Shown: one piece after another, positions 2 to 50,508 of the stretch
Numbering within the stretch: the first letter of the stretch is position 1
Layout: each line of letters opens with the position of its first letter
NCBI GenBank assembly: GCA_963833225.1
Contig: CAWHXD010000019.1
Coordinates: 374,075-438,074, forward strand
DNA: 64,000 bases
Direction of reading: 5' to 3'
From: an uncultured Chloroflexia bacterium
GTDB taxonomy: Bacteria > Chloroflexota > Limnocylindria > Limnocylindrales > CSP1-4
The notes under the pieces: model-generated
Seen by the model: the letters and a program-made list of their open reading frames with translations, nothing else
The model's database searches: none
Told to the model about the DNA's origin: nothing
Program-made: the position numbers and the translations under genes

Positions 2-217
2 CTGACGGGGGAGAAGACGCCGCTCGACTGCACCGCGTACGGGACCCTGTGCAGCCCCCAGAAGCCGCTGGGCGCGCCGATGGTCAGCTCCGAGGGCACC
101 TGCGCGGCGTTCTTCGGCGCCGGCCGCGGTCTCGGGCCCGGCGGGACGTTCTCGCCCTCGCTGCCGCTCATCTCCGTCGCCCCCGGGGGCGGCATCGCGC
201 CGGAGGGCGCCCGATGA
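2..217 (+). CDS. hypD: Hydrogenase maturation factor HypD, C-terminal fragment; the gene starts upstream of the window
   Basis: Frame-2 translation reads ...TAYGTLCSPQKPLGAPMVSSEGTCAAFF..., matching the conserved HypD C-terminus (PLGAxMVSSEGxCAA). The TGA at 215-217 overlaps the hypE ATG at 214 (ATGA). Confidence 0.6.
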   Translation: MTGEKTPLDCTAYGTLCSPQKPLGAPMVSSEGTCAAFFGAGRGLGPGGTFSPSLPLISVAPGGGIAPEGAR

Positions 218-1293
218 CGACCGAGCCCCAGCCCATCACCACGATCGATGCCGACGGGGTTGCCTGCCCCGCTCCCATCCCGGAGGACCAGCGCGTCATC
301 CTGGGCCACGGCTCCGGCGGCCAGCTGTCGGCCGCCCTGATGCGCGAGGTCCTGGGCCCGGCGCTCGAGGCCGCCTCGCCGGGCGGGGTCCTCAACGACG
401 CCGCCGTGGTCGATGTCGCGGGCACGCGCGTCGCCTTCACCACGGACTCGTTCGTGGTCTCGCCGATCCGGTTTCCCGGCGGGGACATCGGCGAGCTCGC
501 GGTCAACGGCACCATCAACGACCTCGCGATGATGGGCGCGGCGCCCCTGGCCATCAGCCTCGCGTACGTGATCGAGGAAGGACTGCCGCTCGAGGACCTG
601 CGCCTGATCACCGCCTCCGCCGCCGCCGCAGCGGTGAAGGCGGGTGCGCACATCGTCACCGGCGACACCAAGGTCGTCGGCCGCGGCGCGGCGGACCAGC
701 TGTTCGTCAACACCGCGGGCATCGGGCTCGTCCCGGACGGGGTCGCCCCGTCGGCGGACCGGGCGACCCCCGGTGACGCGGTCATCCTGTCGGGCCCCAT
801 CGGGCTCCACGGCGTGGCGATCATGAGCGTCCGCGAGGGCCTCGAGTTCGAGGTCGAGATCGAGTCCGACACCCAGGCCCTCAACGGCCTCGTGGCGGCG
901 ATCACGGCGGTCGAGCCGGGCGTCCATGTCCTGCGCGATCCGACCCGCGGCGGCCTGTCCTCGGCGCTCAACGAGATCGCGACGGCGTCACGGGTCGGGA
1001 TGGTCCTCAACGAGCCGGCCCTGCCGATCCCCGGGCCCGTCCGTGCCGCGTGCGAGTTCCTGGGCCTGGACCCGCTGCACGTGGCCAACGAGGGCAAGCT
1101 GGTGGCCATCGTGCCGGCCGCCTCCGCCGACGCGGTCATCGCGGCGATGCGGGCGATGCCCGAGGGGGCGGAGGCCGCGGTCATCGGCAGCGTGGTGGCG
1201 GATCACCCGGGGATGGTCACCATCCGGACGATCGTGGGCTCGGAGCGGATCGTGGACATGCTGGTGGGGGAGCAACTGCCGCGGATCTGCTGA
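214..1293 (+). CDS. hypE: Hydrogenase maturation factor HypE (AIR-synthase-related)
   Basis: ORF 49..1293. The ATG at 214 is overlapped by the upstream stop. HypE motifs are present (ILGHGSGG, FTTDSFVVSPIRFPGGDIGELAVNGTINDLAMMGA, about 360 aa). Confidence 0.85.
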   Translation: MTTEPQPITTIDADGVACPAPIPEDQRVILGHGSGGQLSAALMREVLGPALEAASPGGVLNDAAVVDVAGTRVAFTTDSFVVSPIRFPGGDIGELAVNGTINDLAMMGAAPLAISLAYVIEEGLPLEDLRLITASAAAAAVKAGAHIVTGDTKVVGRGAADQLFVNTAGIGLVPDGVAPSADRATPGDAVILSGPIGLHGVAIMSVREGLEFEVEIESDTQALNGLVAAITAVEPGVHVLRDPTRGGLSSALNEIATASRVGMVLNEPALPIPGPVRAACEFLGLDPLHVANEGKLVAIVPAASADAVIAAMRAMPEGAEAAVIGSVVADHPGMVTIRTIVGSERIVDMLVGEQLPRIC

Positions 1294-8903: not shown

Positions 8904-9518
8904 TCAGCCGCCGACCGGCGGGGCGCTCTGCTGCCGCTCGAAGAGGTAGACGAACTCCGGTCCGTTGTGGCAGATCCAGCAGTTGTCGCCGCGGTTGGCC
9001 ATCGACGCCGGCAGCGGCGCATGGTCGTCGACGCCATGACACGCCGAGCACGGTTGGGTGCCGCCCATGTGCTCCGGCCGCAGCTCGGGGACCGCGCTGG
9101 CCCCGGCCTCCAGCCGTGTCTGGTGGCAGATCAGACAGTCCTCCTTGTGGAGGCTGCTGTGGCCCTCGGCGGTCTTGACCAGGCTGGCCTCGGAGTGGCA
9201 CGCGGTGCAGTCGCGCCAGCCGGCCAGCGGATGACCCATCACCGGGATCGGCTTGGTCCCGACGCCGCCGCTGGCGGTGAGATGGCAGCCGTTGCAGTTG
9301 GCGTCCGGCGGCATCTCGATCCCCACCGGCGACAGGGCCATGGCAGACTTCGGGGTGGGGGTGGGCGCCGGCGTGGCCCGCGGTGTCGGCGCCTCGGCGA
9401 TCTCGCCCGCGACATCCGGCACGGCGACCAGGACGAGGAACGCGCCAACCACCAGGATCCCGAGCGTCAGCAGCAGGACCACGATGCGGAAGCCGTACAT
9501 CGAGACCGCGCGGATCAC
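8904..9518 (-). CDS. Membrane-anchored pentahaem c-type cytochrome (NrfB/ActA-like)
   Basis: 204 aa. It has an N-terminal TM helix followed by five CxxCH motifs (CNGCH, CTACH, CLICH, CSACH, CWICH). The GTG start at 9518 overlaps the stop of the upstream NrfD-like gene (GTGA). Confidence 0.8.
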   Translation of the reverse strand: MIRAVSMYGFRIVVLLLTLGILVVGAFLVLVAVPDVAGEIAEAPTPRATPAPTPTPKSAMALSPVGIEMPPDANCNGCHLTASGGVGTKPIPVMGHPLAGWRDCTACHSEASLVKTAEGHSSLHKEDCLICHQTRLEAGASAVPELRPEHMGGTQPCSACHGVDDHAPLPASMANRGDNCWICHNGPEFVYLFERQQSAPPVGG

Positions 9519-10883
9519 GACCCGGCTCCCTGGGCTGTCCGCTGCGCGGCGGCGACGGGTGTCGCGGCTCCCGGCTCAACCGCGGCTGCGTCACCGCTCT
9601 CGACGTGCTCCTCGTGGTCATGCTTGCGGAGCCACGGCCAGCTGAAGAACAGGTGCGTGTCGCCTTCGCCCATGTTGAGGTAGCGCTCCGCGAGGGTGTA
9701 GAAGAACGCCATGAACGCGCCCCGCACCCACCAGGATCGCGATCTCCACCATCGTCGGCGTGTAGGTCGCGTACGGGTAGACCACGGTGCCGGCGAGCGC
9801 GGTGACCGGGGCGATCTGCCCGGCGGCGACGAACAGGTACCGGTCGAGCAGGATCCCCGCGAGGATCAGCACGCTCGCGGCAACCATTGCCTCGGGGCGC
9901 CGGGCGATCGGCAGCGAGATGATCACGGCCGGGACCACCAGCCCGAGGATGACCCGCGCCCAGAACTGCGCGGCCAGCGGCCCCGTCAGGAGGGCGGTGG
10001 TCGCCTCGCGAAGGCCCCGCTCCTCGCCGTTCAGCCCGGCTGCGATCATGCGCACGGTCAGCGCGCCGACGAGCGCGATCCCGATGGCGAGCAGGAGCCG
10101 TGCCGACGGCAGCGCGACCGGTGCCGCCCGCTCGAAATCGGCGAGCCGCAGCCGGTGGACGAAGTAGAAGACGATGCCCAGCAGCGCGGTGCCGGCAAGG
10201 AACGCCGAGGCGACCATCGTGATCGGCGTGAAGATCCCGTTCCAGAACACCTTCGCACCCAGGACGCCGAACACCGCGCCCAGCGTCGCCGGCGCCAGGA
10301 TCGCGATGATCGAGGCGCAGGTGCAGGCGTACTGGTGGATCTTCGGATGGTCCGTGAACAGGCTCCAGACCTCGACGACCAGGACCACGAGATAGGCACC
10401 GTAGAACACGCCCATCCACCACATGGGCGACGAGGGGGAGGGGACCAGCACCGCCCCGAAGATCATCCGGACCGGGTAGTGCAGGTCGAGGGCGATGATC
10501 AGGAACGCCGTGGTGAGCGAGAGGAGCGCGAGGATCGCGTGGCGCTTCTCGAACGGCTGGAAACGCTCGATGCCGAACACCGTCCCCAGCGACGACGCGA
10601 GGCACAGCCCGCTGGTCATGATCGCGAAGAACGCGTAGCCGATGATCATCAGCCCCCACTCGAACGAGGGCGTGGTCCCGAACACCTCCCAGCCGGGTGG
10701 CAGGGCCACGATCGCCGCGACGGCCATGACGGCCATCAGGGCGAGCAACAGCCCCAGCCATGCCTGGAGCACGACGGGCATGCTCCTGACCTCGGTCACG
10801 AGCGAGCGGGCGAGCGGTCGCGGGGCCAGCGGGATCCGGTAGTCCAGCAGGTGGAGCTCGAGCGGCGTGACGGTCGCGCGCAC
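9515..10883 (-). CDS. NrfD/PsrC-family polytopic quinol-interacting membrane subunit, with an apparent -1 frameshift near 9715
   Basis: ORF 9618..10883 is an about-8-TM NrfD-like protein. Its GTG start at 10883 is preceded by AAGGAGGG. The last about 70 aa continue in ORF 9515..9727, which is a different frame, and that frame's stop forms GTGA with the downstream cytochrome start. The in-frame tail (RVHGVLLHPRGALPQHGRRR) looks like junk. Confidence 0.65.
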
Positions 10884-10886
10884 CCC

Positions 10887-11903
10887 CTATCCCTCCTTGT
10901 TCACCGGGCCGAGGTAGAGCACCCGGGGTTGGGTGCCGTACTCGGGCCACAGGGACTTCGGGTACTGCGTGCGCAGGACCGTGCTGATCTCGCTCTCCGG
11001 GTCCGCGGCGTCGCCAAACTTCCGGGCACCGACGGGACACACCTCCACGCACGCCGGCTGGAGGTTGCGGCTGATGCGGTGGTAGCACCAGGTGCACTTG
11101 TCGGCGACCCCGGGCGTGTCGTTGGGCGCCTGGTCGCCGGCAGGGACGATGTACCGCGCGCCGTAGGGGCAGGAGACGACGCAGTACCCGCAGCCGATGC
11201 AACGGCTGGCGTCGACGAGGACCACCCCGTCCACGGTCTTGTAGGTGGCGCCCACGGGGCACACCGAGGTGCACGGGGAGTTCGCGCACTGCATGCACAG
11301 CCGCGGCATGAAGTAGGCCTCGTCCACCATCTTGCCGGCGGCCGTGGGATCGGTCGAGTCGAACGGGAAGCCGTTGATGCCGCCGTCCGGGGAGTCGATG
11401 TGGATCTCGCCGTCCGTGGTGACCACGTGGCGCTCGATCCAGGTCCGCGTGTACTGGGGCTCCTCCGGGACGTGGTTCTCCTCCTTGCAGGCCGAGACGC
11501 ACAGGCCGCAACCGATGCACGCCGCCGTGTCCACCACGTACGTCCAGCGTCGCGCCTCGGGGTCGTAGGTCGGGATGATCGGCGCGACGTCGGAAGGCTC
11601 CTCCGCAAAGACCGGGGTGAACCTCGCCAGCGCCGCCGCTCCCACCAGGCCGCCGGCGAGCGCGAGACCGAACCCCAGGAAGGCGCGGCGGCTGGTGGAC
11701 GCAGCCGTGATCGCGGGCGCGAGCTCCTCGAGCGGGACGAGCGTCGCATCGGCTGGGGCGGCCTCGACCGGCCGCGGCTCCGCGGGGGCTTCACCAGCCT
11801 CGGCCGGCCGCGCCGCCGCGGGGACGCCGGCGGGCACGGGCGCATCACCGGGCGTGTCCGCGCCGGCGACCGGGGCCGTGGTGGGGGTGGAGTCGTCGGT
11901 CAC
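10887..11903 (-). CDS. Tat-exported 4Fe-4S ferredoxin-type subunit (NrfC/PsrB/DmsB-like)
   Basis: Twin-arginine motif SRRAFLGFGLALAGG. There are four Cys clusters (CIGCGLCVSAC, CMQCANSPC, CIGCGYCVVSC, CTWC...CVEVCP). The GTG at 11903 overlaps the stop of the hexahaem cytochrome (GTGA). A long low-complexity N-terminal leader precedes the Tat motif. Confidence 0.8.
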   Translation of the reverse strand: MTDDSTPTTAPVAGADTPGDAPVPAGVPAAARPAEAGEAPAEPRPVEAAPADATLVPLEELAPAITAASTSRRAFLGFGLALAGGLVGAAALARFTPVFAEEPSDVAPIIPTYDPEARRWTYVVDTAACIGCGLCVSACKEENHVPEEPQYTRTWIERHVVTTDGEIHIDSPDGGINGFPFDSTDPTAAGKMVDEAYFMPRLCMQCANSPCTSVCPVGATYKTVDGVVLVDASRCIGCGYCVVSCPYGARYIVPAGDQAPNDTPGVADKCTWCYHRISRNLQPACVEVCPVGARKFGDAADPESEISTVLRTQYPKSLWPEYGTQPRVLYLGPVNKEG

Positions 11904-12628
11904 GGTGACACCTGGGGGTTGGGGGAGGCGTCGCCCGCGAGGGCCGCGGCGCCGGCGTCCTCGGCGGGACCCCGTCCGGCGGCGTGGCACTCGAGGCAGC
12001 GGGCGTCATCGCTGGTGCCTGCGGGGTGGCGCTGGTTGCGGGCCTTGAAGCCGTCGGGTCCATGGCAGGTGAGGCAGGGCGGCAGGTCATTGAGCGGATG
12101 GAGGACGACCGGCGGCCGATTGGCCGTTCCAACGTGCGGATCGTGACATTCGAGGCACTGGGACACGTAGTGCTGGCCGGGCAGGACCTGGCGGAAGCCC
12201 ATCGGGCGGCCGGTCGCCGCGGTGTGACAGCGCAGGCAGACCTCGTCGGTGGGGACACGGACGGGGACCTGCTCCGAGGTGGCCCGGTCACCTGCCTCGG
12301 CATGCTCGAGCAGGGCGCCATGGCAGCTCTGGCAGCCGATGTCCTTGTGGGCGGCAAGGACCAGCGCCGTGTGCTCTCGCTCGTGGCAGGCCCCGCAGGT
12401 GCTCGACGCGGTGTACGAGAGCTGCAGACCCGCCCACTGCTTCGCGTTGACCGTGCTGTCGAGCGAGTACCGGAGGTACGGGCTCCATGCCATCGCCACG
12501 CCGACCACGAGCACGATCGAGAGGGCCGCGGCGCCGCCCAGGATGGCGGCAGCCGCAAGGAACCCGCCCCGGCGCGTGCGCGGCCGCACCGAGTCCCAGA
12601 AGCGGCGCAGCCGCTGCGACGGCTTCAC
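11900..12628 (-). CDS. Membrane-anchored hexahaem c-type cytochrome
   Basis: 242 aa. It has an N-terminal TM helix and six CxxCH motifs (CGACH, CQSCH, CLRCH, CLECH, CLTCH, CLECH). The GTG start at 12628 overlaps the response-regulator stop (GTGA). Confidence 0.8.
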   Translation of the reverse strand: MKPSQRLRRFWDSVRPRTRRGGFLAAAAILGGAAALSIVLVVGVAMAWSPYLRYSLDSTVNAKQWAGLQLSYTASSTCGACHEREHTALVLAAHKDIGCQSCHGALLEHAEAGDRATSEQVPVRVPTDEVCLRCHTAATGRPMGFRQVLPGQHYVSQCLECHDPHVGTANRPPVVLHPLNDLPPCLTCHGPDGFKARNQRHPAGTSDDARCLECHAAGRGPAEDAGAAALAGDASPNPQVSP

Positions 12629-13341
12629 AGGACGGAGGGGTTCAGGAGACCGCGGCGGACCGTGTAGCGCAGCAGCTCGACCCGGTCGTGCAGGCCCAGC
12701 TTCTCCATCACGTTGGCGCGGTTGTAGTGGACGGTCTGCTGCGAGAGGCGCAGCGACTTCGCGATCTCGCGGTTGGTGTGGCCCATGGCCGCCAGGAGCA
12801 GGATCTGACGCTCCCGTTCGGTCAGCGACTCGTACGGGTCATCGAGCGTGGCATCAGGGGTCCGGCGCACGTAGGTGTCGACCATCCGGGTGACGATGGC
12901 CGGGCTGACGTAGGTGTGGCCGGCGGCCACGCTGCGGACCGCGCCCGTGATGTCGCTGTCCTGTGCCTCCCGGGTCAGGAAGCCATTCGCTCCCGCCTTG
13001 AGGGCCACCGAGAACTGCTCCGTGGCGCAGCGGCAGTCGAGCGCGATGATCTTGGCGTCCGGGCAGGCTTCGCGGATCGCCTCGATCGAGTCGTAGGTGC
13101 CGCATCCGAACCCGCCGACGCTCTCGCACTCGAGGACGATCACCGCCGGTTGGACGACGCGGGCCTGGTCAACGACCGAGTCCCGGCCGTCGACCTCGCC
13201 AACGACGTGCATGTCCGGGGTGGCGTCGATGACCGACCGCAGGGCCGTCGAGAGCATCGGGAAGTCGACGATCGCGAGCAGCACGCCAAGCCGGTCCACG
13301 GCGGGCACGGCCCCGCCCCGGGCATCGGAAACGGAGGTCAT
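12625..13341 (-). CDS. NarL/LuxR-family two-component response regulator (REC + LuxR HTH); no cognate kinase in the window
   Basis: The real start is the internal ATG at 13341 in ORF 12625..13746; the upstream 135 aa are Arg/Pro junk. The REC domain (LLAIVDFPM...VVGEVDGRDS) and C-terminal LTERERQILLLAAMGHTNREIAKSLRLSQQTVHYNRANVMEKLG are present. Confidence 0.8.
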   Translation of the reverse strand: MTSVSDARGGAVPAVDRLGVLLAIVDFPMLSTALRSVIDATPDMHVVGEVDGRDSVVDQARVVQPAVIVLECESVGGFGCGTYDSIEAIREACPDAKIIALDCRCATEQFSVALKAGANGFLTREAQDSDITGAVRSVAAGHTYVSPAIVTRMVDTYVRRTPDATLDDPYESLTERERQILLLAAMGHTNREIAKSLRLSQQTVHYNRANVMEKLGLHDRVELLRYTVRRGLLNPSVL

Positions 13342-13352
13342 GACGGGCGTGA

Positions 13353-13691
13353 TCAGCGTGCCTGCGGCGTTCCCGTGTCGTCCCCGTGGCGGTTCCTGAC
13401 GACGTATGCCCAGAAGAAGGGCATCGCAACCATGAGCACGGTGACGAGCGCGGCGGCGAGCATGGTCGCCTGGGCGCCGAGGTTGAAGTAGACGAGCATC
13501 AGGGCCACGTAGGCCAGCGCGGAGCCGCACCACAGGGTGAGGGTCACGAGGCCCAGCCAGGCGGCGATCCGGGCGCCCCGCCCGCCCCGAGACCCGTACG
13601 CGAACCACGCGACGAGGGCCACGATGCCCTCGACCAGGAACAGCATCGGGACGACCAGCGCGACGGTTTCGGACAGTTCCGTGATCTGCAT
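13353..13691 (-). CDS. Hypothetical 112-aa membrane protein with three predicted TM segments
   Basis: A hydrophobic ORF that ends 11 nt upstream of the response-regulator start on the same strand. It is probably co-transcribed. Confidence 0.5.
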   Translation of the reverse strand: MQITELSETVALVVPMLFLVEGIVALVAWFAYGSRGGRGARIAAWLGLVTLTLWCGSALAYVALMLVYFNLGAQATMLAAALVTVLMVAMPFFWAYVVRNRHGDDTGTPQAR

Positions 13692-13813
13692 CCCCGAGGT
13701 CCCCAGTGCGTATCGCGGCCGCGACAGTGGTCGATAGGGGAATCATCGGTCACGGCCGTCGGTTGGAGCAGGGGCCAAGGGGGAAAAAGTGGCCCGTACC
13801 GGTCGATACATCC

Positions 13814-13848
13814 GGACGGCCGTTCGGACCCGGATCGAACGGCCGTCC
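13814..13848 (-). terminator. Perfect 13-bp stem / 9-nt loop hairpin downstream of mtnA; candidate terminator
   Basis: GGACGGCCGTTCG-gacccggat-CGAACGGCCGTCC. A second hairpin at 13772..13795 is followed on the minus strand by CTTTTTCCCCC. Confidence 0.5.
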
Positions 13849-13948
13849 GCATTCGGGCGATGTGCGTGGCCCCGGAGCCGACGCTCGTCGCCGGCCTGCC
13901 GCCAGGACCGCTCCGCCGGCGTGATCGGCGTCCCGCTCCTCGTGCCCC

Positions 13949-45711: not shown

Positions 45712-46902
45712 CTATTCCGCCGGCAGATGAAGCGGGTACGTCCCGTACTCGCGGACGAGCTTGACGATCTGGTCGTAGGTGTGACCCGACACGTCGCTCG
45801 CGACCGAGTGGTCGCTCATGAATACGTAGCCGCCGCCCTCGGCGGCGCGCAGCCGGTGGAGCACCTCGCGACGTACCTCGTCCGGATCGCCGCGCTCCCA
45901 GACGCGGATGTCGCTGTTGCCGCAGAACGTGAGCCGATGGCCCAGCCGCTCGCGGAGCGTGACGACGTCGAGGTCCGCCTTGGCCTCGAGCGGGTTGTAG
46001 CCGTCGAGCCCGATCTCGATCATGTCCTCGAAGATCGCGTTGGCGTTGCCGCACCCGTGGTACATGACCAGCAGGCCGTGCTGGTGGGCCAGCTCGATGA
46101 TCCGGGCGACCGTCGGCTTGTAGTACTTGCGCCAGTAGGTGGGGCCCATGAACAGGCTCTTGCCGTAGGCGACGTCGCCCCAGATGACGAGCCCGTCCAG
46201 GAGGCCGTCCGCCGCCTCGATCTGGGCCTTGGCGATCTCGTAGCTGAACTCGCCGATGCGAAGCAGCTGCTCGCCGAACCGCTCCGGGAACTCGCCGGTC
46301 CACATCAGGGTGTTGAGCTGGCCCAGGAGGCGCGTGCAGATCTCGGACGCCTCCGTGACGCTGCCGAACACCGGGAAGTCCGGGTACAGCCCCTTGACGG
46401 TCTCCACCCACGGCGGGCTGTTGCGCTCGAAGCCATCGCCCACGCCGGCGATCTGGTTGTCGCCGGCCTCGAAGTAGCGGCGCCGGTCGGTCGGGTCGTC
46501 GAACTCGAACGCCTCCAGCTTCTCGATCGTGTCCGTCTCCCAGCTCACCTGCTCGGGCATCGGCAGGTCGAAGCGCTTGCGGATCGTGGTCTCGAAGCCG
46601 GTCTTGACCACCACCTCCTCGTCGTCCTCGCGGATCGTCTCGAAGGCCCGGATGTGGGGATCCATGTTGGGGACGGTGGTGATGAAGTCGAGGTCGTAGT
46701 GGTAGTACGGATCGGCGTCGGCCGGCAGCCCCAGCTCCGTGCGCCACCGGTCACGGAACTGGCCCCAGAAGAAGTCCGTGATCGGGACGCGGTCCGCCTC
46801 CTGGTGCCCGAAGGTCTTCCGGATCCGGTCCAGCTTGGCCAGCGTCGAGGGCTTGCGGTCCGTGCCTCCGCCCCGTCCGTAGGTCTCGAACATGCCGGGC
46901 AT
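45712..46902 (-). CDS. Uroporphyrinogen-decarboxylase-family (MtaA/CmuA-like) corrinoid methyltransferase
   Basis: The ATG at 46902 follows GGGAG. The 396-aa product has the URO-D N-terminal RVPITDFFW motif and a TIM-barrel C-terminal part with LVMYHGCGNANAIFEDMIEIGLDGYNPLE. Confidence 0.75.
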   Translation of the reverse strand: MPGMFETYGRGGGTDRKPSTLAKLDRIRKTFGHQEADRVPITDFFWGQFRDRWRTELGLPADADPYYHYDLDFITTVPNMDPHIRAFETIREDDEEVVVKTGFETTIRKRFDLPMPEQVSWETDTIEKLEAFEFDDPTDRRRYFEAGDNQIAGVGDGFERNSPPWVETVKGLYPDFPVFGSVTEASEICTRLLGQLNTLMWTGEFPERFGEQLLRIGEFSYEIAKAQIEAADGLLDGLVIWGDVAYGKSLFMGPTYWRKYYKPTVARIIELAHQHGLLVMYHGCGNANAIFEDMIEIGLDGYNPLEAKADLDVVTLRERLGHRLTFCGNSDIRVWERGDPDEVRREVLHRLRAAEGGGYVFMSDHSVASDVSGHTYDQIVKLVREYGTYPLHLPAE

Positions 46903-46906
46903 CGGA

Positions 46907-47536
46907 TCAGCTCCCCGCCAACAGCTGCTTGGCCAGGTCCACCGCCGCACCCGCATCGGGAGCGAAGCCGTCGGCGCCGATCTGCTCGGCGAACTCGGGC
47001 GTGGTGGGCGCGCCACCGATCATCACCTTGGCACCGACGTCGGCGGCCTTGATGGCCTCCACCACGGCCCGCATGTTGGGCATCGTGGTGGTCAGCAGGG
47101 CGCTGAGGCCGATCAGGCGGGCGTCGTGCTCGCGGGCGGCCTCGACGAACTTGGCGGCGGACACGTTCACCCCGAGGTCGATGACCTCGATCGCCGCTCC
47201 CTTGAGCATCATGCCGACCAGGTTCTTGCCGATGTCGTGGAGGTCGCCCTCGACGGTCCCGATCACCGCCGTGTGCTCGGGCCGGATCCCGGCCTCCACC
47301 AGGCTCGGCTCGAGGATGGCCGTGGCTTCCTTCATCGCCCTCGCGGCGATGAGCATCTCGGGGACGAAGATCTCGCCCTCCTGGAACTTGCGGCCGATGA
47401 CCCCCATCGCCTCGGTCATCGCATCCAGGATCTCCTGGGCCGATACGCCCGCCGCCAGGGCCTCGGTTGTCAGCCGGGCCGCCGATGCCCGGTCGCCTGC
47501 CTCGATCGCCCTGCCCAGCTCGCCCAGGTCAGCCAT
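46907..47536 (-). CDS. Cobalamin-binding corrinoid protein (MtaC/MtbC-like: B12-binding-2 helical domain + B12-binding Rossmann domain)
   Basis: The ATG at 47536 follows GAGGAG at spacing 7. The 209-aa product has the His-on B12 motif GDLHDIGKN and the GGAP glycine-rich motif. Confidence 0.8.
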   Translation of the reverse strand: MADLGELGRAIEAGDRASAARLTTEALAAGVSAQEILDAMTEAMGVIGRKFQEGEIFVPEMLIAARAMKEATAILEPSLVEAGIRPEHTAVIGTVEGDLHDIGKNLVGMMLKGAAIEVIDLGVNVSAAKFVEAAREHDARLIGLSALLTTTMPNMRAVVEAIKAADVGAKVMIGGAPTTPEFAEQIGADGFAPDAGAAVDLAKQLLAGS

Positions 47537-48921: not shown

Positions 48922-49218
48922 ATGCCACTCCTCCAGGACGCCTGTATCGTCAACCCTGGGCCGCCGCGGGCCCGTCCGCGACACCTCAAGGGTGCAAGAC
49001 TACCATAATCGGCCGTTGGTATATCGATTTTTCGCGCCATTCGTGGCACCATTCAGGCACCGCGACGTGCGTGACCCGGGCGATCTCCGCACGAATGGGG
49101 AGGACATGAGCCAGACGCTGACAAGGCACCCGGATACGGTGAATGGAGGACCGATGGTTCGTCATGGGCCAGAAGTCACGCGTGATAGCGATCCCAGCCA
49201 CTGCTCGCTGGCCGATCC

Positions 49219-50508
49219 ATGCCCGGCCACGAGGCCCGGGCTGTGACCCCGGCCACGGTCCGCCTCGCCTTTGGTCGAGATGGCCTCGAGATCGACGTGC
49301 CGGCCGGCGTGGACGTGCTCCTGCCACGGGCCCGGGTACCGCTCGCCGACCCTGGGGCGGCGCTCCGGGCGGCGCTGGCCGCGCCGGCGACGGCCCATCC
49401 GCTGCCGGAGCTGGCGCCGATCGGCAGCACCGTGGCGGTGAGCGTCTGTGACGTCACGCGTCCGTTTCCATCGCGGGTGGTCCTCCCGGTGCTCCTCGAT
49501 CAGCTCCCGGGCCGGCACGTGCGGCTGGTGATCGCCACCGGAAGTCATCGCGCGTGCACGGACCGGGAGCTCGAGGCGATGCTCGGACCCCGGGTTCTCG
49601 CCAGGTGCGAGGTGGTCCAGCATGATGCGGATGACCCTGCCGCCCATGTCACGCTGGGAACGGTGCCCGGCTCGGATGTGCCGGCCCGCGTCGATCGCCG
49701 GTTCATCGAGGCGGATGTCCGGGTCACGCTGGGATTCGTGGAGCCCCACTTCTTCGCGGGGTTCTCCGGCGGACCCAAGATGGTGGTTCCCGGCCTGGCC
49801 GGCATCGACACCATCCGCGAGCTGCATTCGGTGGCCCGGATCGCCAGCCCCCACGCGACGTGGGGCGTGCTCGACGGCAACCCGGTCCATGATCCGATCC
49901 GGGCGATTGCCGCCCGCGCCGGCGTGGACTTCGCGCTCGACGTCGCGCTCGACGAGGGGAACCGGATCTCCGCCGTCTTCTCGGGGTCGCTGGAGGCCGA
50001 GCACCGCGAGGCATGCGCCGACGTCCGCCAGACGGCAATGGTCGGCGTCGCGGAGCCGTACGACGTCGTCGTCACGACCAACAGCGGGTATCCGCTGGAC
50101 CAGAACCTCTACCAGTGCGTGAAGGGCCTCAAGGCCGCGGCGGGGATCGTGCGCGACGGTGGCACGATCATCCTGGCTGCGGCCTGCGAGGACGGGCTGC
50201 CAGCCCACGGCCGCTACGCGCACCTGCTGGCGAGCGCGCCCGGACCGGCCGAGTTCCTCGCGGCCCTCTCCCGAGGGGAGATCTCGGAGCGGGACCAGTG
50301 GCAGGTGCAGGTGCAGGCGGGGATCCAGGCGCGCGCTCGCGTCCTCGCCCACACGCCCGGCCTGGGCGCCGAGGATCTGCGGAGGGCGTGGCTTCAGGCG
50401 GCGGATGACGTGGCGGTCGCCCTGCGGGACGCCCTCGCGGTGGCCGGTCCGGGGGCGCGTGCGGCGATCCTGCCAGTCGGTCCCCAGACGATCGCGTATG
50501 TGACCTGA
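49219..50508 (+). CDS. LarA-family protein (nickel-pincer-nucleotide-dependent lactate racemase / 2-hydroxy-acid epimerase family, DUF2088)
   Basis: 429 aa. The family N-terminus (VRLAFGRDGLEIDVP...VAVSVCDVTRP...LVIATGSHRACT) is present. The start may be an internal GTG about 25 nt downstream. Confidence 0.75.
   Translation: MPGHEARAVTPATVRLAFGRDGLEIDVPAGVDVLLPRARVPLADPGAALRAALAAPATAHPLPELAPIGSTVAVSVCDVTRPFPSRVVLPVLLDQLPGRHVRLVIATGSHRACTDRELEAMLGPRVLARCEVVQHDADDPAAHVTLGTVPGSDVPARVDRRFIEADVRVTLGFVEPHFFAGFSGGPKMVVPGLAGIDTIRELHSVARIASPHATWGVLDGNPVHDPIRAIAARAGVDFALDVALDEGNRISAVFSGSLEAEHREACADVRQTAMVGVAEPYDVVVTTNSGYPLDQNLYQCVKGLKAAAGIVRDGGTIILAAACEDGLPAHGRYAHLLASAPGPAEFLAALSRGEISERDQWQVQVQAGIQARARVLAHTPGLGAEDLRRAWLQAADDVAVALRDALAVAGPGARAAILPVGPQTIAYVT

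Follow-up and report, generated by a model that had tools for sequence, protein, structure and literature searches.

A predicted quinone-linked eleven-haem module with its own pseudo-receiver regulator in Limnocylindria (Chloroflexota)

A stretch of 64,000 nucleotides from an uncultured Chloroflexia bacterium (GenBank assembly GCA_963833225.1, contig CAWHXD010000019.1, positions 374,075 to 438,074; in the following the window) contains an operon that encodes a small membrane protein (mem112), a LuxR-type regulator, a hexahaem cytochrome c (c6), an iron-sulfur (FeS) subunit, a membrane subunit of the NrfD family and a pentahaem cytochrome c (c5). The products of this operon probably form a self-contained membrane complex, which would connect the (mena)quinone pool with c-type haems on the outer (P) face of the membrane and would possess no substrate-converting subunit. 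A role as quinol:cytochrome oxidoreductase or in electron export, which an earlier note on this DNA had suggested, is still the best reading of the predicted functions.

Gene content and conservation of the operon

The genes are arranged head to tail on the minus strand and span positions 8904–13691 (Table 1), as revealed by the list of open reading frames (ORFs) and by profile searches. ORFs in this high-GC DNA (G+C content of the window approximately 71%) were called from stop to stop and filtered by codon-position GC; in addition, tblastn was used. All genes and motifs were located where the earlier note had placed them. However, not five but six genes are present (mem112, regulator, c6, FeS, NrfD and c5). 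A base-by-base check showed GTGA stop-start overlaps between the genes of the regulator and the hexahaem cytochrome (12628–12625) and between those of the hexahaem cytochrome and the FeS subunit (11903–11900). A third overlap of this type, assumed at 9518–9515, was not found in the raw sequence; the GTGA at this position closes a frame other than the raw NrfD frame, and the overlap only appears after correction of the latter. The gap between the FeS and NrfD genes comprises 3 nt, and AAGGAGG stands before the NrfD start; mem112 and the regulator gene are separated by 11 nt. Scans for consensus promoters and terminators between 8800 and 14000 revealed nothing, and the window gave no hits in scans for Rfam families and tRNAs.

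Relatives of the module were found by scanning one genome per GTDB species with an NrfD alignment, which yielded 174 hits, and the best 80 loci were retrieved. The hosts of these loci are nearly all Chloroflexota known as metagenome-assembled genomes (MAGs) and labelled Candidatus Limnocylindrales/Limnocylindria or 'uncultured Chloroflexia' (MFD series). Three loci carry other host labels, namely one Sulfomarinibacteraceae and two Anaerolineaceae. The module is also present on the closed MAG chromosomes OY970218.1 and OY969796.1. The order c6-FeS-NrfD-c5 was present in every one of the 80 loci that was long enough to judge, with identities down to 34–60% (tblastn). This recurrence is far beyond chance, and the proposal of a single compact operon is borne out by the retention of the core order. 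The gene mem112 was located upstream of the cytochrome genes in approximately 46 loci, also in those in which the best tblastn match of the regulator lies downstream. Its product matched no family of Pfam or NCBIfam and is a candidate for a fifth subunit or an assembly factor (compare NhcD and TMH1 of the cable bacteria).

A catalytic subunit was found neither in the window, in agreement with the earlier note, nor conserved beside the module in the 80 related loci. When the neighbouring ORFs of these loci were clustered, the recurrent neighbours were an abhydrolase, MtnA, a cytosine/purine permease, a DHO-dehydrogenase-like protein, MFS and CitMHS transporters, a helicase and similar proteins; recurrent genes for molybdopterin proteins, NrfA/Hao, hydrogenases, oxidases or extra cytochromes were not among them. 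Likewise, no gene for a soluble periplasmic hydrogenase, a formate dehydrogenase or a cytochrome c3 was linked to the module in any retrieved locus. A further multihaem cytochrome (MHC) gene was not linked either, and the operon encodes two small membrane-anchored cytochromes only; beyond these two proteins, CxxCH motifs occurred in no real-frame ORF of the window.

Table 1. Features of the window discussed in the text (aa, amino acids; TM, transmembrane; Tat, twin-arginine translocation; HTH, helix-turn-helix).
Feature	Position	Strand	Characteristics
mem112	13353–13691	-	112 aa; 3 hydrophobic helices (hydropathy); first gene of the operon
LuxR/NarL-fold regulator with pseudo-receiver	12625–13341	-	238 aa; GerE HTH and weak receiver match
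Hexahaem cytochrome c (c6)	11900–12628	-	242 aa; six CxxCH; one TM helix at residues 24–42
Tat-exported FeS subunit (NrfC/PsrB/DsrO type)	10887–11903	-	338 aa; SRRAFL; 16 Cys in four ferredoxin motifs
NrfD/PsrC-family subunit	9515–10883	-	PF03916; about 10 TM helices; corrected protein 455 aa, raw ORF ends at 9618
Pentahaem cytochrome c (c5)	8904–9518	-	204 aa; five CxxCH; one TM helix at residues 12–30; Pro/Thr-rich linker
Candidate operator array	13750–13890		four 12-bp CRACG-NN-CGTYG palindromes
HypE	214–1293	+	left end of the window; protein ends ...PRIC

Subunits and predicted path of the electrons

Profile matches and the single predicted TM helix of each cytochrome uphold the assignment of an NrfCD-type pair with two membrane-anchored multihaem cytochromes, and both profiles that the earlier note had named for the pair, PF03916 for NrfD and Fer4_11 for the FeS subunit, were matched. 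The latter protein (Fer4_11, E 5.8e-20) contains only Fer4-type domains. Its 16 cysteines are arranged in the four motifs CxxCxxCxxxC, CxxCxxxxCxxxCP, CxxCxxCxxxCP and CxxCx11CxxxCP, all of which are conserved in 56 sequences, and four [4Fe-4S] clusters are therefore predicted. All matches to NCBIfam models remained below threshold (DsrO 185 bits, cut-off 200; TtrB 166 bits; NrfC 134 bits, cut-off 377.6; QrcC 106.5 bits, cut-off 400; HmcB 82 bits, cut-off 420). Among the structures of the PDB, PsrB (2vpw_B, E 7.8e-42, 147 bits) was matched best, followed by ArrB (6cz7_B, E 7.7e-33) and ActB (6f0k_B, E 5.7e-20, 75 bits). The Tat motif SRRAFL is preceded by a Pro/Ala-rich stretch of approximately 65 aa (window 11700–11903), which is poorly conserved and variable in length. 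This extension is unusually long for the n-region of a Tat signal; it may remain on the cytoplasmic side, with the signal anchor left uncleaved, or translation may in truth begin further downstream. The only alternative start in frame is a GTG at codon 23.

The NrfD subunit exceeded the cut-off of PF03916 clearly (90.7 bits, cut-off 25.8) and possesses approximately 10 hydrophobic helices according to hydropathy. In the window, its raw ORF ends at position 9618, 100 nt short of the pentahaem start, due to one extra base in the G-run 9720–9723 (GCGGGGCGCG in comparison to GC-CGGCGCG in four relatives). The corrected protein of 455 aa shows 88–90% identity over 100% of the length to homologues of 451–457 aa; it ends at position 9515 and overlaps the pentahaem start by 4 nt, as do the relatives. 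The extra G could be either a real mutation or a homopolymer or assembly error. If it were genuine, the cluster could be a decaying pseudogene cluster in this genome, since the ORF is broken 34 codons before the C-terminal helix of the corrected protein would continue. This explanation is considered unlikely. The extra base sits in a G-run, the other five genes are intact, and the displaced NrfD frame keeps a coding-type GC content at third codon positions as well as 100% alignment with its homologues. Furthermore, related MAGs derive from indel-prone assemblies. In L002/L005 (contig_86388, MFD09964.bin.2.200), many genes are split (among them E1_dh, cytosine/purine permease and CitMHS) that are intact in the sister contig L001/L004. 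This assembly is therefore rich in indels, and frameshifts in this series of MAGs should be read as biology only with caution.

Both cytochromes matched profiles of the cytochrome c7/c3 type. In the alignment of the hexahaem cytochromes (A3), six CxxCH motifs and exactly six further histidine residues are invariant, and all six haems are therefore predicted to be bis-His-coordinated. Among PDB profiles, this protein matched a 333-aa decahaem chain (6r2q_A, E 5.4e-8), which we take to be MtrA although the label of the entry differs, and the N-terminus of octahaem nitrite reductase (E 2.5e-6). The similarity to ActA was not significant (6btm_A, E 0.69; 8k9e_A, E 0.079), and the best NCBIfam match was the DmsE decahaem family with 36 bits (cut-off 192). 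An assignment as quinol dehydrogenase of the NapC/NrfH type was rejected (NrfH model TIGR03153 13.2 bits, cut-off 134; NrfH in the PDB profiles E 0.014).

The alignment of the pentahaem cytochromes (A2) revealed five invariant CxxCH motifs, the invariant residues H96, H120, H124 and M173, and a histidine at either position 149 or 150. From this pattern, bis-His ligation would be expected for four haems and His/Met ligation for one, or else one haem would be five-coordinate. According to hhalign, A2 and A3 are related (probability 95%, E 1.8e-8), with haems 1–4 of the pentahaem cytochrome aligned to haems 3–6 of the hexahaem cytochrome, and on this alignment the two proteins are distant paralogues. 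In addition, at least four database representatives are in-frame fusions of NrfD with a multihaem domain at the C-terminus (P0048/L019, 686 aa, L019:10001–12061; P0245/L088, 679 aa, L088:8001–10040; P0244, 846 aa; P0266, 693 aa), which include the divergent lineage GCA_040960765.1. Such a fusion is topologically sensible, as the cytoplasmic C-terminus of NrfD would continue into the TM anchor of the cytochrome. The fusions argue that the pentahaem cytochrome is a fixed physical neighbour of NrfD in the complex.

The module might also serve as membrane anchor and electron supply of a real enzyme, whose catalytic subunit would be encoded elsewhere, or else one of the two cytochromes would take this part, for example as a reductase or peroxidase with a five-coordinate haem in the pentahaem protein. 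NrfD relatives normally serve molybdoenzymes, and the partner search covered the retrieved loci. Moreover, the pentahaem cytochrome possesses only three strictly invariant histidines outside the haem motifs, beside one shifting histidine and one methionine. Cytochrome c554 has a five-coordinate haem, and this protein gave the best PDB profile match of the pentahaem cytochrome; however, this match is weak (E 1.3e-3), and no significant relative was found among the PDB profiles (ActA 6btm_A, E 0.011). A CxxCK or other catalytic haem motif occurs in neither cytochrome (ORFs, A2, A3). Since, in addition, no partner is conserved beside the module in the 80 loci despite the rigid unit of six genes, and since eleven haems and recurrent NrfD-cytochrome fusions resemble a wire rather than a docking platform, an enzyme of this kind appears quite improbable.

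Due to the Tat motif, the TM anchors and the 10 TM helices (TMH), all redox cofactors are predicted on the P side. In the proposed complex, the NrfD subunit would hold the site for quinol or quinone, and the exported four-cluster ferredoxin would dock on it, by which an NrfCD redox dimer would be formed. The two TM-anchored cytochromes, with six bis-His haems and five haems, one of the latter possibly with His/Met ligation, would lengthen the wire to an external partner, and the 3-TM protein mem112 could be a small accessory subunit. Most likely, electrons would flow from menaquinol via the four [4Fe-4S] clusters and the eleven haems to an acceptor on the P side or outside the cell. This acceptor could be extracellular, a terminal reductase or oxidase, or a cytochrome, either soluble or membrane-bound. 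Extracellular electron transfer in a monoderm cell, which the earlier note had considered, would be one possible form of this. The pentahaem cytochrome, with its flexible linker and its possible His/Met haem of higher potential, would represent the exit. The complex would consequently act as a quinol:cytochrome c oxidoreductase in a role like that of alternative complex III (ACIII) or Cbc. For ACIII and Qrc, proton movement by NrfD has been discussed (PMC8076601, PMC13059093).

Alternatively, the complex could work in the opposite direction as a cytochrome c:menaquinone reductase of the Qrc/Nhc type, which feeds electrons from P-side or extracellular donors into the quinone pool and is possibly electrogenic. 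Reduced humics, Fe(II), or a cytochrome-linked hydrogenase or formate dehydrogenase are candidate donors. The composition of the module is closest to that of NhcABCD, which has been described as a TpIc3:quinone oxidoreductase (PMC8076601). Of the family models, DsrO gave the highest score for the FeS subunit, and NrfD scores only with DsrP and QrcD. Furthermore, the six predicted bis-His haems of c6 suggest a low potential, and Hyp genes are located approximately 8 kb from the cluster in the closest relatives. However, the Hyp synteny is found in only about nine loci, no gene for a soluble periplasmic hydrogenase, a formate dehydrogenase or a cytochrome c3 is linked to the module in the retrieved loci, and, with the exception of DsrO, the scores with the models of Qrc, Dsr and Hmc miss the cut-offs by a wide margin. 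The invariant methionine of c5, as possible ligand of a haem with higher potential, would also better suit an exit site. The reverse direction is thus regarded as a less probable option, and oxidation of menaquinol is preferred.

With regard to hydrogenases, HypE is encoded at the left end of the window, and HypD lies just outside the left edge by synteny with the related loci L001 and L003. A [NiFe]-hydrogenase locus may be present beyond this edge. HypE occurs within 10 kb of the cluster in only about nine loci, with five unrelated genes in between. As the recurrent neighbours include no gene for a catalytic partner and the HypE synteny is confined to these loci, the module is self-contained at the level of gene linkage. 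A hydrogenase as missing partner, to which the Hyp genes and the JGI label 'HybB-like' point, was rejected because of the five intervening genes, the restricted synteny and the weakness of the HybA match (107 bits, cut-off 263), which was the only hydrogenase match listed for the FeS subunit; a HybB match to NrfD of the window was not listed. The profiled part of the window between 17 and 50.5 kb encodes E1/E2 of a 2-oxoacid dehydrogenase, sugar catabolism of the fucose/rhamnose type, LarA and transporters. Amid the sugar catabolism genes, a URO-D-like gene (45715–47019, minus strand) and a gene for a lactate racemase of the LarA type (49189–50505, plus strand) were detected, which appear to be unrelated to the cytochrome operon.

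Pseudo-receiver regulator and candidate operator

The second gene of the operon was described in the earlier note as an orphan response regulator of the NarL type. The NarL fold was confirmed, and no kinase was found nearby; the phospho-acceptor aspartate, however, is gone, and the protein is a predicted pseudo-receiver with a conserved cysteine quartet. In Pfam, the regulator matched GerE (E 3e-18), whereas the match to Response_reg remained below the cut-off (24.2 bits, cut-off 30.2); in NCBIfam, full-length matches to MctR, UvrY and NarL were below threshold. The AF2 model, with a predicted local distance difference test (pLDDT) score of 79.5, shows a canonical (beta-alpha)5 receiver and a four-helix HTH domain, and VraR, LiaR, ChrA, NarL and DesR were the top matches in Foldseek (receiver of DesR: TMt 0.84, root mean square deviation 2.4 Å).

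In the phosphorylation pocket, D26-F27 replaces the Asp-Asp pair after beta1, E71 the phospho-aspartate at the end of beta3, and R124 the lysine after beta5. These substitutions are invariant in 50 operon-linked orthologues, in 26 database homologues and in both the upstream and the downstream paralogues of divergent loci. A histidine kinase (HisKA/HATPase) was detected neither within 10 kb on either side of L001 and L003 nor among the recurrent neighbours of the relatives, the search being confined to the loci. The regulator is, as predicted from this pocket, a phosphorylation-independent pseudo-receiver. The loops beta3-alpha3 and beta4-alpha4 frame the active site of receiver domains. In these loops, Cys72, Cys80, Cys103 and Cys105 are conserved, with C103 being invariant, and the whole signature reads D-F / E-C / G-C / (D/E)-C-R-C / L-T-R-E. 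The quartet may form a metal, Fe-S or thiol redox site, with which the regulator may sense the redox state, a metal or the Fe-S status. Descriptions of Cys-rich or Fe-S pseudo-receiver LuxR regulators that match this protein were not found in the literature searched.

VpsT and RitR are atypical NarL/FixJ-family regulators that act independently of phosphorylation. The same was reported for BldM and WhiI (PMC4125116). All of them resemble the regulator of the operon with regard to the receiver fold combined with a GerE HTH domain, the missing cognate kinase and the degenerate phosphorylation pocket. In contrast, the regulator described here possesses four conserved cysteines and is fixed to one respiratory operon with phased CRACG-NN-CGTYG palindromes.

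A gene of this regulator family is located directly upstream of the hexahaem gene in the close relatives and in 8 of the 10 divergent loci that were profiled, and in these 8 divergent loci a second paralogue follows downstream of the pentahaem gene. In the two others, a PCYCGC-motif protein (PF13798; L069:7549–8154) and a PKD-domain protein (L063:7559–8170), respectively, are encoded upstream of the hexahaem cytochrome instead. Beside this, a 300-nt stretch of the regulator gene was found at both operon flanks in L079 (7398–7697 and 11998–12297), 4600 nt apart and with 98–100% identity. This repeat points to a recent duplication, to gene conversion between the regulator paralogues or to an assembly artefact.

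Upstream of the operon, the palindrome CRACG-NN-CGTYG occurs at 13750–13761, 13814–13825, 13837–13848 and 13879–13890. The spacings between adjacent palindromes (64, 23 and 42 bp) are roughly multiples of 21 bp. Three of the eight sites of ACGGCCGT in the window lie within 95 bp in this array, which is the only phased array in the 64 kb. In 67 related loci, the core ACG-NN-CGT is tenfold enriched within 330 bp ahead of the first gene (5.6 per kb, background 0.56 per kb), and the aligned upstream regions show no variation in the ACG...T columns. Adjacent boxes of the relatives are spaced by 19–24 bp in 47 of 65 cases, by 42–45 bp in 10 and by 64 bp in 4. The basic spacing corresponds to two helical turns, as would be expected for the cooperative binding of HTH dimers to one face of the DNA. 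The operon's own regulator probably binds the palindromes as dimers and would thereby control transcription, as suggested by their linkage.

Ancestry, comparison with known systems and significance

No equivalog of NCBIfam fits the NrfD subunit (DsrP 32.9 bits, cut-off 350; QrcD 29.3 bits, cut-off 570); the NrfD equivalog and HmcC were not matched, and sequence and profile searches against the PDB revealed nothing meaningful. An exhaustive search of 1.84 billion representatives with a hidden Markov model yielded only 1141 proteins with E ≤ 1e-3 and 140 with E ≤ 1e-30. The top scorers (at least 347 bits) occur in the same cytochrome/regulator context. The next tier (approximately 120–250 bits) shows 35% profile identity over 376 columns, and no equivalog of NCBIfam exceeded its threshold for these proteins. 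Of four members of this tier that were sampled, three lie in molybdopterin-FeS-NrfD operons that also contain rhodanese, Sulf_transp or NarJ-like genes; for the fourth, the contig ends within the upstream gene. The simplest history appears to be that the FeS-NrfD pair is derived from the BC pair of a molybdoenzyme of the Psr/Phs type, the A subunit of which was exchanged for cytochromes. On one outgroup contig (L084:5077–10243), the molybdopterin-FeS-NrfD operon is directly followed by genes for a Rieske protein and cytochrome b, which is an unusual pairing.

The complex iron-sulfur molybdoenzymes (CISM) Psr, Phs and Ttr thus comprise the closest sequence relatives of the FeS subunit (PsrB, TtrB) and of NrfD. 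However, their subunit with the molybdenum bis(pyranopterin guanine dinucleotide) cofactor, which is present beside the nearest outgroup NrfDs, is absent from the window and the 80 loci; in the module, two cytochromes take the place of the catalytic subunit, and the FeS subunit is approximately 140 aa longer, extended at the N-terminus and with an insert that separates the first two cluster motifs.

The earlier note had left open that the genes represent a rearranged ACIII, and a reduced ACIII with other act genes elsewhere would be a further form of this explanation. ACIII (ActABCDEF) is, as is proposed for the module, a quinol-oxidising wire on the P side, composed of a CISM-derived FeS and NrfD pair and a TM-anchored pentahaem cytochrome (ActA), and it is common in Chloroflexota. 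The FeS subunit matches ActB2 (6f0k_B). Furthermore, the AF2 model of NrfD, which is of low confidence (pLDDT 58.5), superimposed best on ActC of four ACIII structures (E 9e-8 to 7e-6, TM-score approximately 0.60), followed by ActF. NrfD-like subunits with 10 TMH generally model on ActC, and ActC-type chains are the main solved templates (PMC8076601); because of this and of the low confidence of the model, the match is read as indicating the 10-TMH class and not membership in ACIII.

Several results argue against this explanation. ActD, the monohaem ActE and a second NrfD (ActF beside ActC) are absent from the window and every locus, each of which contains a single NrfD gene, and neither the FeS protein nor the conserved neighbours of the 80 loci include a B1 domain or a molybdopterin-domain gene. 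Similarity to ActA is not significant, an additional hexahaem cytochrome is present, and the bit score of PsrB is well above that of ActB. ActB2 has the same cluster set as QrcC. For QrcC, 1x[3Fe-4S] and 3x[4Fe-4S] are listed (PMC8076601), in contrast to the four [4Fe-4S] clusters predicted here from 16 cysteines. As, in addition, the nearest NrfD sequence relatives are of the Psr type and stand in molybdopterin-FeS-NrfD operons, a rearranged or reduced ACIII is highly improbable. The likeness to ACIII is likely a functional analogy, with both acting as quinol:cytochrome c oxidoreductases.

The remaining systems differ as well, and the gene order is, as the earlier note had stated, unlike the act, nrf and qrc layouts. 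Of the features of NrfABCD, neither a CxxCK motif nor NrfA is present, the NrfC score is far below its cut-off and the NrfD equivalog was not matched. A QrcB-like gene is missing beside the low scores for QrcC and QrcD, and genes of the DsrM, DsrK and DsrJ types occur in no locus, with DsrO just below and DsrP far below the cut-off. Judged by these comparisons, the operon lacks the defining features of ACIII, Nrf, Qrc, Dsr and Psr-type systems and belongs to the broad family of NrfCD redox modules.

For modules that lack a catalytic subunit, there are precedents. The statement of the earlier note that known systems encode a catalytic partner alongside is contradicted by three examples; moreover, ActB1 and QrcB are cofactor-less relics. 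NhcABCD consists of a multihaem cytochrome, an FeS protein, an NrfD protein and a small membrane subunit (PMC8076601). Like the module, Nhc and Hmc of Desulfovibrio combine P-side multihaem cytochromes with a four-cluster FeS protein, a 10-TMH NrfD-like protein and a small membrane protein but no substrate-converting subunit, and they link cytochromes c to the quinone pool (PMC8076601), as is predicted for the module. In contrast to this likeness, no orthology was detectable (HmcB far below its cut-off, HmcC not matched); they possess one soluble-type protein with 9 or 16 haems instead of two TM-anchored cytochromes with six and five haems, and the module belongs to Chloroflexota and has its own regulator in the operon.

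Clusters of Methanoperedenaceae and Cbc-type clusters of metal reducers are of the same predicted kind, with a quinol-oxidising NrfCD pair and adjacent multihaem cytochromes but no catalytic subunit, and they would move electrons out of the membrane as the module would. They differ in that archaea and anaerobes with many large MHCs are concerned, whereas only two small cytochromes are encoded here, and the likeness is one of description only. For Methanoperedenaceae, clusters of NrfD, 4Fe-4S protein and MHC were described as 'MK:cytochrome c oxidoreductase' (MK, menaquinone) without a catalytic subunit, and their NrfD was reported to be related to sequences of Chloroflexota (Dehalococcoidales) (PMC7327174). 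The TMH1-DsrOh-DsrPh-tetrahaem locus of cable bacteria, which also lacks a catalytic subunit, has been discussed as an ACIII-like candidate (PMC13047784). This locus of the cable bacteria/Desulfobulbales likewise comprises a small TM protein, a DsrO-like FeS protein, a DsrP-like NrfD and a multihaem cytochrome, and DsrO is the best NCBIfam match of the FeS subunit described here. However, it encodes one tetrahaem cytochrome instead of a hexahaem and a pentahaem cytochrome, NrfD of the module matches DsrP only weakly, and phylum and regulation differ; this comparison, too, is by description only. According to the literature searched, the six-gene architecture, the near-restriction to Limnocylindria, the apparent ancestry from the Psr type, the recurrent NrfD-cytochrome fusions and the Cys-quartet pseudo-receiver regulator with its phased candidate operator are new.

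Some points weigh against a self-contained quinol-oxidising complex. A catalytic partner may be encoded elsewhere in the genome, since the gene inventory covered the loci. NrfD is frameshifted in the window, and the complex may be inactive in this organism if the extra base is real; moreover, confidence in the structural model of NrfD is low. Conservation is the basis for the His/Met assignment and for the proposed sensing role of the cysteine quartet, and one haem of the pentahaem cytochrome could be five-coordinate and thus catalytic. Direction and partner are proposed from the sequence for every member of the family, and the same applies to complex formation, topology, the binding of the regulator to the operator and the sensing chemistry.

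In its widest form, the interpretation would be that the module is a Limnocylindria-wide substitute for quinol:cytochrome c oxidoreductase or a route of electron export, which arose from a Psr BC pair independently of ACIII and is switched by an undescribed LuxR-type pseudo-receiver sensor with four cysteines (Fe-S, metal or thiol) acting via helically phased palindromes. This extended proposal is speculative and rather doubtful as a whole. No paradigm is changed; similar modules lacking a catalytic subunit were already on record for other phyla.

Limnocylindria (CSP1-4/Ellin6529) are abundant uncultured Chloroflexota of soil, sediment and freshwater, whose respiratory chains are known only from annotation. 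A rigidly conserved, quinone-linked module with eleven haems, present in 174 or more species-level genomes, likely belongs to the core of the electron disposal or acquisition of these bacteria, and it may contribute to growth on humics or metals or under low oxygen. If the proposed function is true, the module would represent, besides ACIII, a second independent case in which the BC pair of a molybdoenzyme was recruited as a cytochrome-linked quinol oxidoreductase. The regulator and its candidate operator would furthermore offer a compact system, consisting of one protein, one palindrome and four cysteines, for the question of how receiver domains become phosphorylation-independent sensors.

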